Shown in pieces: positions 48,287 through 52,803 of a stretch of DNA of 64,000 nt (position 1 is its first letter; every line of letters starts with the position of its first letter). Both the position numbers and the translations under genes were made by a program. Source of the DNA: an uncultured archaeon (lineage in GTDB: Archaea > Asgardarchaeota > Lokiarchaeia > Sigyniarchaeales > SOKP01); assembly GCA_964486045.1 (NCBI GenBank), contig CAZALK010000005.1:64001-128000 (forward strand). Reading direction: 5' to 3'. The notes beneath the pieces were generated by a model, which worked only from the letters and a program-made list of their open reading frames with translations, searched no databases and was not told the origin of the DNA.

Positions 48287-49696
48287 TTAAATTTTGGATA
48301 ATTGGTTTTTGGTAGCTCCACATACGGGACAATGCCAATCATCTGGAAGATTTCTAAAAGGGGTTCCTGGAGCAATTCCGCTATCAGGATCTCCTTTAAC
48401 TGGGTTATACACAAATCCACAGACTTGACATTTATATTTTCCCCCGAGTTCTTCACTTGTCTGTAACACCTTTGGGGCTGGTTCACCTTCTTTTTTCTCG
48501 ACACTTATTTCTTCTCTTGGTAATTCAAATAAGTTGGGCATAGCATGTTCATATTGCTTTAATATAAAGCGAGAAATAACAATTCTTTGAATTTCTGAAG
48601 TTCCTTCGTAGATCTGGTATAACTTTGCATCCCTGAACAATTTTTCAACCGGAAATGTTCTAACATATCCATAGCCACCAAAAATTTGAATAGCTTCAGT
48701 TGTAACTTTCATTGCGACATCAGAAGCAAATGCTTTTGCTATAGAAGATGTTAGATTACTATTACGACCTTGATCTCCTTCCCATGCCGCCTTATAAGTT
48801 AACAATCTAGCAGCTTCAATATCTTTATACATATTAGCAATTTTAAATTGAATAGCCTGATAATTCGCAATTGGTCTTCCAAAGGTTTTTCTTTTAAGAG
48901 CATAATCCATGGAATATTCCATAGCAGATCTAGCGCATCCTATTGCAAATGCTGCAACAGCAGGTCTTGTTTTTTGAAATGTTTGCATTGCAACAACAAA
49001 ACCTCTTCCTGGTTTTGCTAAAACATTCTCTTTTGGGATTTTAACATCTTTTAAGACAATAGAACAAGTGTTCGACGCTCGTTGACCAAGTTTAGGAATA
49101 TGTTGCCCTGTGGATACTCCTTCAAGATCTGTAGGTACAATAAACCCCGCAATTCCACGATGTTTCTTTTCAGGATCTACAGTAGCAAATATCGAAACAT
49201 AATCAGCATATCCAGCATTAGTAATCCAATATTTTGTTCCGTTTAAAATGAAACCGTCTCCATCTTCTTCTGCTCGACATTGCATTCCTGCTACGTCAGA
49301 TCCCATTCCTGGTTCAGAAGTAGCAAATGCAATTAATTTGAAATTCTTTGTTATGTCTGTTAGAATTCTTTCTTTTTGTTCTTTTTTTCCACCAATAACA
49401 ATCGGTGCTGAACCTAAATCGTTATCGAACACAGAAGTAGCTATTCCAGGACATGCTGCCGCAATTTCTTCAACAACAATTACAGATTCAACTAAACCAT
49501 AACCTTGTCCACCATATTCCTTTGGAATACCTAAATTGGTTAATCCTGCCTTCCAGGCTTTTTTAATAACATCCATAGGCATCATTTCTGCCTCATCATA
49601 ACTAGCAGCTACTGGTAATACCACTTTTACAGCAAATTCTCTGGCCTTTTTTTGTAAAGCTTTTTGGTCTTCTGTTAAATCAAAATCCACAATCAA
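48287..49696 (-). CDS. Acyl-CoA dehydrogenase fused to a C-terminal rubredoxin
   Basis: [25 protein letters not shown] and IYEGTSEIQ, then a linker and YKCQVCG..WHCPVCG. Confidence 0.92.
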
Positions 49697-49707
49697 TACC
49701 TCTTACT

Positions 49708-50925
49708 TTATCCCATTTTTTCAATTAATTTATCAATAATTTCTTTAAAATCTAAATCTTCTTTTTTAGGAACAAATTTAATTTCAATTCTTTCATCTAT
49801 AACTTCTATCCCTGCAGCCTTTAACTCTTTTATAATTTCATCGACAGCCCCAGCACTCCAACCATAAGACCCAAAAGCTAATCCTATTTTATTTATTGGT
49901 TTGAGCCCTCTTTGATAGACTAAGTATTCAGCCACAGATGGATAGATTGTTTTATTTAAAGTAGGACTTCCCACTAAAATAGCTCTAGCTTTCATGGCTT
50001 CTGTGATAACATCAGAGAAATCTGAACTAAATAGTCGAAATCTTCTCACTGGAATTCCCCTTTTACTAATTTCATTATATAATGCTAGTGCTATTTTTTC
50101 AGTACTACCCCACATTGTATCATAAATGATTAATACACTATTTTCCTCAATTTCTCCTTTTGACCATTGTTGATATTTTTTAATTATATTAGGAATATGC
50201 TTTTTCCAACAAACCCCATGTGAGGGGCAAATGACATCAATTGGTAAAGATCCTATCTTTAGGAGAGCTTTGGCAATTAAATTCGATAAATAAAGCAAAA
50301 TATTTGCATAATATTTTTCAGCCTCCTCCATTATAACTCCTAGATCATTTTCTTCATCCCAAATTTGGGAAACTGCAATATGTTGCCCAAAAGCATCATT
50401 AGAAAACAAAATATTATCTCCATCATCATCCATCATGAATGAAACCATTGAATCTGGCCAGTGAATCATTGGAACTGGTACAAATGTAATTACTTTTCCA
50501 TTACCAATGTCAATAGTATCCCCCTCCTTGACTGCTCGAATTTTGTTAAAAATTTCTGCTTCAACTTCTTCATGGTAGTGAAGCTTAAGATTTTCCACAC
50601 CGATTTTTGATGCTATTATTTCAGCATTGGGAAGGTGTTTAAGAATGAGTGGAAATGATCCTGAATGGTCTGGCTCTACATGATTTACAATAAAATATTC
50701 GATTTCCTCAGGATTGCAAATAGATTTGATGTTTTTTAAATAATCTTCGAAATATGTACGTTTAACGGAATCGATTAATGTTATTTTGTCACCTTTAACG
50801 ATGTAAGCGTTGTATGATGTACCCCTGTGAGTGCTGTACCCGTGGAAATTGCGAACCTCCCAATCAACATAACCAACAAAGAAAACGTCTTTCAATATTT
50901 CAAGGTTTTTCATTTTACTTTTCAC
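49708..50925 (-). CDS. fprA: Flavodiiron protein (FprA, A-type flavoprotein)
   Basis: HVEPDHSG, HWPDS, DAFGQH, PSHG and flavodoxin motifs DTMWGST and GSYGW. Confidence 0.93.
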   Translation of the reverse strand: MKSKMKNLEILKDVFFVGYVDWEVRNFHGYSTHRGTSYNAYIVKGDKITLIDSVKRTYFEDYLKNIKSICNPEEIEYFIVNHVEPDHSGSFPLILKHLPNAEIIASKIGVENLKLHYHEEVEAEIFNKIRAVKEGDTIDIGNGKVITFVPVPMIHWPDSMVSFMMDDDGDNILFSNDAFGQHIAVSQIWDEENDLGVIMEEAEKYYANILLYLSNLIAKALLKIGSLPIDVICPSHGVCWKKHIPNIIKKYQQWSKGEIEENSVLIIYDTMWGSTEKIALALYNEISKRGIPVRRFRLFSSDFSDVITEAMKARAILVGSPTLNKTIYPSVAEYLVYQRGLKPINKIGLAFGSYGWSAGAVDEIIKELKAAGIEVIDERIEIKFVPKKEDLDFKEIIDKLIEKMG

Positions 50926-51044
50926 TCTAATCTTTAGGATTCGTTGATTTTTTATTATTAATTAAAATCAAATTAAAAACTTATATTCTATTGATTATAA
51001 ATGTTTCAGAAATTAAACAGAAAAAATATAAAAAAAAGTGTTAT

Positions 51045-51191
51045 TTAATCAATTTTTTCAAACATATCTTTACCGACTCCGCAAACTGGACATATATAAT
51101 CATCAGGTAGATCTTCAAACTTAGTACTTTCGTTACTTTCATCATACAAAAATCCGCAAGCAGTACATTCCCAAATCGAAATTTTTACCAC
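51045..51191 (-). CDS. rub: Rubredoxin (missed by the ORF track)
   Basis: Manual translation: ..[44 protein letters not shown]; start GTG 51191 or ATT 51182. Confidence 0.9.
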
Positions 51192-51456
51192 GTTCTCCTA
51201 TTTTTAAGATATTAGAGAAATTATATTATTTAAAATTATATGCATTAAATAGTGAACTTAATAATAAGAATTTATCTAACAAGTTCTCACTTCATACTTA
51301 TAATGAAAGTTTTGTCGTCATAAAAAGTATTCCTTATGAAGTATCAATTCCAAGATATAATCTATTCCTTCTATTTGTTATTATATCAGTTGTATCAATC
51401 ACTATAAGTAAAAAACTAAAAAAAACTTAATTCTAAATATGACAATCTAAAGAATA

Positions 51457-52803
51457 TCACTCTTTTTTCTTAAACCCTTTTTTGGAACCCTTACAATTTG
51501 GACATTTAAAATCATCAGGAAGGTCTTTAAATAGAGTTTCCATAACAACTTCATCATATTCCATTCCGCAATTGTCGCATATAAAAATATATAATTCGAG
51601 TAAATTTCTTAATTCCTCTTTCGATACTTCTTTTTCCAAGTTACTGTAAACATAAGAAATGGACTTAGTATCTCCTAACAAAATTGCTCCTTTGAGCTTG
51701 TTTCCTTTTAATACCAATTTTTGATAGCAACTATCTTTCTTGTCAGATCTTTTTAGAATTTCCCACCCACCGGCTTCCTCTCTGGAGGGATCAATAATGC
51801 CTATAGAAGTCAACTCTAAACCAACTATTTTAAGTGTATTTTTGGGTGTTGTTCCAAAATATTCAACTTTTTTTGACCCAAGAACCGATGCAGCAACAAT
51901 TTTCGATTGTTCCATACACGCAGGGATGATACCCCAAATCTGATTGTTATACTCAATGCAATCTCCAATTGCAAATATGTCTTTCTCACTGGTTTCTAAA
52001 AACTCATTTACAATAATACCCCTGTTTGTTGCTAAGTTAATTTTTTTAGCTAAATCAGTTGTGGGTTTGATCCCTGCCTGAATTAGCACAATATCCGCAT
52101 CTATTCTTGTTCCTCCTTTCAATTTTATGCCTGTTACTATTTCATCCCCTAGTATTTCTTCTGTTGCGGCATCTAAGACAACGTTAATTCCCCTTCTTTC
52201 TATTTCTTCCTTTAGCATAGTGCCACATTCGATATCTAATTGCCTTGGTAATAACCGAGGGAAAAATTCAACAACCGTAGTATCTAACTTACAGGCTTGT
52301 ATTTGATTTGCTAGCTCTAAGCCAAGCAACCCTCCCCCGATAATGATTGATTTCTTTGCTTTTTTACTTTTTATAAACTCTTTAATTTCTAAAGCATCAT
52401 CAATACTTCGTAATGTGAATACCCCTTTCTTCTCATCTCGCATTTTTACCGCATTTTTGATAGGAGGAATGTTAGGAGTACTTCCTAATGCCAAGATAAG
52501 TTTATCATAGGAAACAGGCTCTTCATTACCGTCAAGTTGTATTGTTTTAGTAGTGGGATCGATCTTATCAACGCGACTGTTTAGATTAAGATTAATTTTT
52601 TTTTTGTTATACCACTCCGGCTTAAAAACAATTAGTTTATCAATTGTAACCTTCTCTGAGATCAATTCAGGTAAATTTACTCGGGTATAATAGGGATACT
52701 TCTCTTGCGTAAAAATCTCAATTTCTGCATCTTCATTTAACAATCTGATATTTTGGGCAGCAAAAGTGCCAGAGACATTATTACCAATAATCACTACCTT
52801 CAT
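51457..52803 (-). CDS. NAD(P)H:rubredoxin oxidoreductase-like FAD enzyme with a C-terminal rubredoxin
   Basis: YDKLILALGS, GGGLLGLE and FAIGDC; terminal CDNC..DLPDDFKCPNC. Confidence 0.85.
   Translation of the reverse strand: MKVVIIGNNVSGTFAAQNIRLLNEDAEIEIFTQEKYPYYTRVNLPELISEKVTIDKLIVFKPEWYNKKKINLNLNSRVDKIDPTTKTIQLDGNEEPVSYDKLILALGSTPNIPPIKNAVKMRDEKKGVFTLRSIDDALEIKEFIKSKKAKKSIIIGGGLLGLELANQIQACKLDTTVVEFFPRLLPRQLDIECGTMLKEEIERRGINVVLDAATEEILGDEIVTGIKLKGGTRIDADIVLIQAGIKPTTDLAKKINLATNRGIIVNEFLETSEKDIFAIGDCIEYNNQIWGIIPACMEQSKIVAASVLGSKKVEYFGTTPKNTLKIVGLELTSIGIIDPSREEAGGWEILKRSDKKDSCYQKLVLKGNKLKGAILLGDTKSISYVYSNLEKEVSKEELRNLLELYIFICDNCGMEYDEVVMETLFKDLPDDFKCPNCKGSKKGFKKKE

Follow-up and report, generated by a model that had tools for sequence, protein, structure and literature searches.

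A conserved fprA–acyl-CoA dehydrogenase gene pair with an optional rubredoxin fusion in Asgard archaea

Genes of the fprA–acyl-CoA dehydrogenase locus

We analysed a 64,000 nt window from an uncultured Asgard archaeon of the Sigyniarchaeales (assembly GCA_964486045.1, 99% complete and 7.8% contaminated; contig CAZALK010000005.1, positions 64,001-128,000). Feature coordinates are window positions; G000 denotes this host genome, C5 the window contig, and L and P numbers the loci and proteins compared. Calls of open reading frames (ORFs) and Pfam identified four co-oriented genes on the minus strand, encoding an NAD(P)H:rubredoxin oxidoreductase-like protein (NROR) with its own rubredoxin (Rd) domain, a free Rd, the flavodiiron protein (FDP) FprA and an acyl-CoA dehydrogenase (ACAD) with a complete C-terminal Rd. 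The stop codon of fprA lies 11 nt before the ACAD gene. This confirmed the arrangement described in an earlier note on this DNA, which had proposed that acyl-CoA electrons reach O2 or NO through Rd and FprA. We found that the unit conserved across the Promethearchaeia, the class of the host to judge from the named records nearest to it, is the fprA-ACAD pair and not the ACAD-Rd fusion.

The ACAD gene (48287..49696, minus strand) encodes a protein resembling medium-chain ACAD (MCAD). Its N, M and C domains occupy residues 8-378 of a core spanning residues 1-380, and it has no ETF_alpha domain of the electron transfer flavoprotein (ETF). The core is 52% identical to T. thermophilus MCAD (1ukw); taken with the human and pig enzymes, identities range from 46-52% and the fold is the same. 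The catalytic glutamate of the J-K loop, Glu364, stands at the position of MCAD Glu376 and was invariant in homologue alignments. An AlphaFold model (pLDDT 74, poor at residues 341-391) confirmed the fold and nothing beyond it. An unstructured linker of about 40 residues, with no PF00766, leads to the fused Rd at residues 420-465 (48302..48439, minus strand; PF00301, E 5.6e-23 for the protein and 1.5e-23 at G000:C5:112302-112439). Its ligands Cys423, Cys426, Cys456 and Cys459 form two CxxC motifs of canonical spacing, and are invariant in 42 fusions.

The fprA gene (49708..50925, minus strand) encodes only a metallo-beta-lactamase domain (Pfam ODP/lactamase) and a flavodoxin domain, as in class A, and its best PDB match is Moorella FprA 1ycf. 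The diiron ligands His77, Glu79, Asp81, His82, His150, Asp172 and His231 are invariant in 28 orthologues. Judged by catalytic and metal ligands, the ACAD, its tethered, predicted Fe(SCys)4 Rd and the class A FDP are all intact.

Translation of the ACAD could begin at a TTG directly after the 11 nt gap or at a GTG (49690) 17 nt from the fprA stop codon. The GTG is the likelier start since a GAGGT motif resembling a Shine-Dalgarno sequence lies in the gap (49698..49702, minus strand), and a protein started there would have 467 aa, like most homologues. Upstream of fprA are the free Rd gene (51045..51191, minus strand; 48 aa, PF00301, E 1.2e-13) and the NROR gene (51457..52803, minus strand; Pyr_redox_2, Rubredoxin_C and a C-terminal Rd at 408-444). 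T-tracts lie 3' of the NROR, Rd and ACAD genes and none follows fprA, and relatives have genes inserted between NROR, Rd and fprA. Thus the tight unit is fprA-ACAD, and only this pair looks like a single transcript. Bacterial promoter and terminator scans gave matches at chance level only.

Conservation of the pair and fusion state

Our main survey covered 60 relatives and the host genome and contained 51 orthologue loci. An FDP gene was found upstream on the same strand in 48 of the 51, within 200 nt in 36 and within 5 kb in 46, counts that come from related genomes and are not independent. Both partners have been exchanged: FDPs of a second clade, 32-34% identical to host FprA, are encoded 16-82 nt before ACADs of this family in four loci (L119, L121, L122 and L223), and in L222 an ACAD with a short Rd overlaps an FDP of the host-FprA family. 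Adjacency therefore outlives the exchange of either gene, a pattern that favours selection acting on the pair over inertia.

The earlier note had tied its proposal to recurrence of both the fusion and the adjacency. Both recur, but fusion is not obligatory: in most close relatives this ACAD, without an Rd tail, stands next to the same fprA. In most of the genus the ACAD has about 392 aa (75-78% identity) and no Rd, and a free Rd gene lies upstream of fprA; this free Rd is kept in most of the family. In the first sample, 3 of the 37 genomes from the genus had the long canonical Rd form, which also occurs in more genomes of sister genera. Helarchaeales orthologues (47-49% identity) are likewise unfused. 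The fusion is no assembly artefact, because 48 protein database clusters at 90% identity carry both ACAD and PF00301. A short, rubrerythrin-type Rd (PF21349) is fused to the ACAD in Promethearchaeum (P. syntrophicum), Lokiarchaeum (L. ossiferum), Harpocratesius and Sigynarchaeum; one ACAD clade has thus been joined to two Rd types. The tree hints at an ancestral fusion that was later lost, but the test gave this history no support, as monophyly of the long-Rd fusions could not be rejected (p-AU 0.265). One genome (G013) carries a fused and an unfused ACAD (L037 and L054), each after its own fprA, which reflects either duplication or bin contamination (7%).

Across the phylum an orthologue was detected in 149 of 251 genomes (E<=1e-100), mostly unfused in the other classes. 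In Jordarchaeales (2/2) the unfused orthologue has as its neighbour a free long Rd, 64% identical to the host fused domain, and the ACAD lies near Rd, FDP, rubrerythrin (Rbr) or superoxide reductase (SOR) in 4 of 5 Heimdallarchaeia-type loci; neighbour counts for these other classes are biased upward, because four loci were picked for a nearby FDP. Among the loci examined in Freyarchaeia, Atabeyarchaeia, family f17 and most Thorarchaeia no link of the ACAD to Rd, FDP, Rbr or SOR was found. The orthologue in Thorarchaeia (L187-L197) consistently follows two genes for proteins of 720-770 aa, the second of which is replaced in L188 by a gene for a 972-aa FeS flavoprotein.

Cultured strains encode the ACAD (P. 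syntrophicum QEE15297.1, L. ossiferum UYP44044.1), so the module is directly testable. Values in the Imachi 2020 table (338 for the likely orthologue DSAG12_01122, 327 for fprA) are within the range of hypothetical neighbours and hence uninformative. RNA run X1 covers the P. syntrophicum locus with one contig of flat depth, which cannot indicate expression, and the L. ossiferum supplements have no entry for the module.

ACADs that lack EtfA and carry the short Rd (PF21349) are also frequent among records with the names Syntrophaceae, Syntrophales, Desulfobacterales and Deltaproteobacteria. These Desulfobacterota/Syntrophales proteins share the host's ACAD clade, its lack of an EtfA domain and its Ile-Pro motif (116/116); they differ from the host form in the short Rd, the lack of a nearby FDP (7 loci) and their position, which is within the short-Rd branch of the Promethearchaeales. 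A tree keeping all Asgard sequences together was rejected (p-AU 3e-62) in a test of 55 rows; the group was defined once the tree was known, P0172 counted as archaeal, and rows with long branches or near-duplicates were excluded. Every relative of the basal Helarchaeales enzyme with an archaeal name is Asgard, and the sole bacterial label among its relatives is that of P0168, from a genome assigned by GTDB to Promethearchaeia. Transfer of the ACAD-Rd from archaea to Desulfobacterota/Syntrophales is possible, and is the simplest reading of these trees. On one bacterial-type contig (L227:3550-6416) two genes for an ACAD with short Rd stand in tandem, of which the second (P0231) is divergent, and a ferritin/rubrerythrin-like gene comes after them; the tandem pair may form a heteromeric ACAD.

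Relation to ETF and to BOOR

MCAD Glu212 or Glu260 of long-chain ACAD (LCAD) pairs with ETF alpha-Arg249 through a salt bridge (PMC11153573); we took the LCAD position as +12 from the MCAD position, per the numbering in that source. For the ETF INDEPENDENCE, we found Ile200 and Ser212 in the host ACAD at both partner positions of alpha-Arg249. Unlike MCAD, which keeps the first acid, and 1ukw, which keeps the second, the host enzyme lacks both, and it carries the Rd tail. Both positions are non-acidic in 449/449 rows of its clade, a redundant set. At least one acid is kept in 135 of 154 background ACAD domains, and also in three ETF-adjacent bacterial ACADs, in the host's two nearest paralogues and in the BCR-type protein. 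The glutamate rule is not absolute, since the other 19 background domains (12%) are without both. The pocket for ETF beta-Leu195 is partly conserved in the ACAD and does not discriminate.

The earlier note had reported no etfAB nearby. This holds for the whole window contig, on which we found no etf gene, but three etfAB pairs lie elsewhere in the host genome. No ETF gene was found beside any Asgard ACAD orthologue examined. ETF genes occur in 50 of the 61 sampled genomes. ETF_alpha was not found in G012, G036, G037, G044 and G055, each at least 90% complete, and all five keep the module; the single-contig genomes among them, G044 (H. repetitus) and G055 (L. ossiferum), are also without PF01012.

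The precedent invoked for the chain was that of Fusobacterium nucleatum, where BCR FN1424 and FDP FN1423 form butyryl-CoA oxygen oxidoreductase (BOOR; Bystrom and Wolthers 2024, reviewed in PMC12288474 and PMC12528894). According to PMC12288474, BOOR joins Bcd, the EtfA C-terminus and Rd and is encoded in a bicistron with its FDP; the alpha4-beta4 complex that results reduces O2 and not NO. The likeness extends to an ACAD with a C-terminal Rd, a gene adjoining that for a class A FDP, a proposed acyl-CoA to O2 path and an anaerobic host. The precedent is nevertheless partial: the dehydrogenase and Rd of BOOR are separated by an EtfA FAD domain (PMC12288474) that is absent here, and P0199, the BCR-type protein that stood in for F. 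nucleatum BCR in our sequence comparison and tree, has one at 437-517. The host core is 41% identical to P0199 and MCAD-like rather than Bcd-like. Phylogeny against bacterial homologues set the host ACAD in an MCAD-like Asgard clade (100/97), several starred branches from P0199. Gene order also differs, with FDP then ACAD here and BCR then FDP in the BOOR-type locus L228, and the host module has an FDP from a different clade, an optional Rd and an adjacent NROR and free Rd. With no EtfA domain, an MCAD-like core and a separate origin, the module is not a member of BOOR, but it probably works in a BOOR-like manner. Our literature search found no description of an Asgard flavodiiron/FprA or Rd-ACAD module; the genome survey of the primary BOOR paper may list EtfA-less forms. 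The module is a real, conserved variant of a recently described kind (BOOR, 2024), built from different parts and apparently unpublished.

A proposed acyl-CoA to O2 path and its alternatives

We think it probable, from gene content and conservation, that the module provides soluble, ETF-independent O2 scavenging. Acyl-CoA would reduce the ACAD FAD, and Rd, tethered here and free in most relatives, would accept the electrons singly in place of ETF. Rd would then reduce the FDP FMN and diiron site, at which O2 would become water. NAD(P)H, acting through NROR-Rd on the free Rd, would be a parallel input. The residue after the last Cys-Gly is Ala in 33 of 47 fused Rds versus Val in 40 of 43 free short Rds. 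An Ala here is a mark of rubredoxins with higher potential, a property that would fit acyl-CoA as the donor. Likely substrates are short or medium acyl-CoAs from amino-acid or fatty-acid breakdown. Butyryl-CoA is a weak reductant, at about -10 mV (PMC12288474), and acyl-CoA would otherwise be hard to oxidise for these H2-producing anaerobes. Spending its electrons on O2 would spare NADH.

The earlier note had left the acceptor as O2 or NO, and O2 may be the likelier, to judge from FprA Lys50 and Trp267. The residues K53 and Y271 are reportedly O2-favouring in work on an Entamoeba FDP. The Lys50 and Trp267 positions are those altered to Lys and Tyr in the E. coli mutant 7r2p; the nearest structure to FprA carries the name nitric oxide reductase. 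The note had also proposed partner-independent acyl-CoA oxidation, which overstated the case. Enrichment subcultures exposed to low oxygen lost a Promethearchaeales population (bioRxiv 10.1101/2025.02.26.640444), so the module reads as scavenging and not as a growth mode. We found no Cox or bd oxidase in the host genome, which encodes a second FDP elsewhere.

Transfer from acyl-CoA to FprA without ETF is supported by three independent comparisons, namely the class-wide synteny, the lost ETF-contact glutamates and retention of the module in genomes where no ETF was found, but the host does encode ETF, with all three pairs on other contigs, and further points weigh against this path. We found no precedent in the literature for direct transfer from ACAD FAD to Rd without the EtfA flavin. 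Loss of the glutamates happened once, ancestrally, and Asgard orthologues with no FDP nearby also show it. The ETF-free genomes hold other ACADs, so absence of ETF does not single out this one. Six fusion loci are without an adjacent FDP (L110, L111 and L218-L221), and three queries found no FDP in the ACAD-Rd genomes G191 and G238 (97-98% complete, fragmented). None of the 7 bacterial-type loci has an FDP within 5-7 kb, and in 2 of them etfAB lies two genes away.

The locus lies in an oxidative-stress island with glutaredoxins, FTR and, 5-6 kb from the module on the plus strand, two alternative Rd-fed sinks: an Rbr (42272..42856; PF02915 and PF21349) and a desulfoferrodoxin/SOR (42904..43350; PF01880 and PF06397). 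NROR, Rd, class A FDP, Rbr and SOR together resemble the Clostridium/Moorella defence, in which NADH feeds NROR, Rd and then FDP, Rbr or SOR; here, unlike there, an acyl-CoA input is tightly linked to fprA and NROR has its own Rd. The ACAD might instead feed a shared Rd pool drained mainly by Rbr and SOR, with FprA optional. Besides the nearby sinks, this would fit the rubrerythrins still present in fusion genomes without a detected FDP, and the several Heimdallarchaeia-type and Jordarchaeales loci in which the ACAD adjoins Rbr, SOR or Rd and not FDP. However, the close pairing that has arisen repeatedly is with fprA, not with rbr or sor, and we consider this arrangement unlikely.

Somewhat less likely still is flow in the opposite direction, from NAD(P)H through NROR and Rd to an ACAD that would reduce a crotonyl- or acryloyl-type enoyl-CoA as an anoxic electron sink, with the FDP sharing the Rd. 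Such flow would be downhill (NADH at -320 mV to about -10 mV), NROR adjoins the ACAD in three Helarchaeales loci (L087, L090 and L091), and the best NCBIfam match of the ACAD is the acryloyl-CoA reductase AcrC, though far under the cut-off (367 versus 640 bits). On the other hand, the tight partner in Promethearchaeales is an oxidant-consuming FDP, the locus lies within the stress island, and NROR is set apart by T-tracts and, in many cases, by intervening genes.

A conventional ACAD that depends on ETF, shares its regulation with stress genes and bears an accessory Rd tail with no role in electron transfer would agree with the many genomes that encode ETF and with the missing tail in most of the genus. 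We hold it to be very improbable: both ETF-contact acids are lost, ETF genes are not found beside the orthologues, and the Cys ligands are invariant in all fusions, of two distinct Rd types. Least credible is an acyl-CoA oxidase passing electrons directly to O2, with neighbours clearing the H2O2; adventitious oxidase activity is known in ACADs (PMC12288474) and the change in the ETF face could leave the flavin accessible, but reactive oxygen species would be made in an anaerobe and the Rd fusions and fprA link would be left unexplained.

A wider version of the scavenging path is more tentative, and we would put it at somewhat under even odds. An Asgard-wide ACAD may have dropped ETF early and taken Rd as its direct one-electron acceptor. 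This would be a novel way for electrons to leave an ACAD, giving a minimal, BOOR-independent acyl-CoA:O2 oxidoreductase that in Promethearchaeia was assembled anew around FprA several times and that was passed to syntrophic Desulfobacterota. If direct transfer from FAD to Rd is true, the ACAD family would have an acceptor besides ETF or O2, and the EtfA flavin of BOOR would be shown to be dispensable. Oxygen handling in anaerobic Asgard archaea bears on models of eukaryote origin. The recent studies consulted deal with Cox, bd oxidase and catalase in Heimdallarchaeia, and the module suggests that a soluble route in Promethearchaeia has been overlooked.

Several other genes of the neighbourhood were recorded. 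A 681-aa caspase/C13-like peptidase (43571-45616) lies in the stress island and is absent at this position in the relatives examined. The CoA-disulfide reductase-rhodanese protein (40500-42179) has 559 aa versus about 796 aa in relatives, with most of its C-terminal part gone. Convergent with the ACAD gene is a Cys-rich ORF of 162 aa (47793-48281) with no Pfam or NCBIfam match, whose position is kept in most of the family. Between NROR and a 4Fe-4S gene at 56704 stand leuB/leuD/leuC-like (or aks-like) genes (52908-55966); NROR and the 4Fe-4S gene are neighbours in most relatives examined, and the block is apparently a lineage-specific insertion. Many relatives have a CO dehydrogenase catalytic subunit gene divergent to NROR (L096:1045-2949; TIGR01702 above cut-off, tested on L096), with 634-aa ORFs as in L096 also in L099, L101-L103, L105 and L106; the host locus is without this gene. 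The host genome also encodes a thiamine pyrophosphate (TPP) enzyme with an N-terminal Rd (L239:5105-6895; G000:C2:213104-214894), nearest to pyruvate oxidase (below cut-off); it is the second enzyme of this genome in which an Rd is tethered to a substrate-oxidising part. A similar Rd-like gene, free and of 48 aa, directly follows NROR in relatives.

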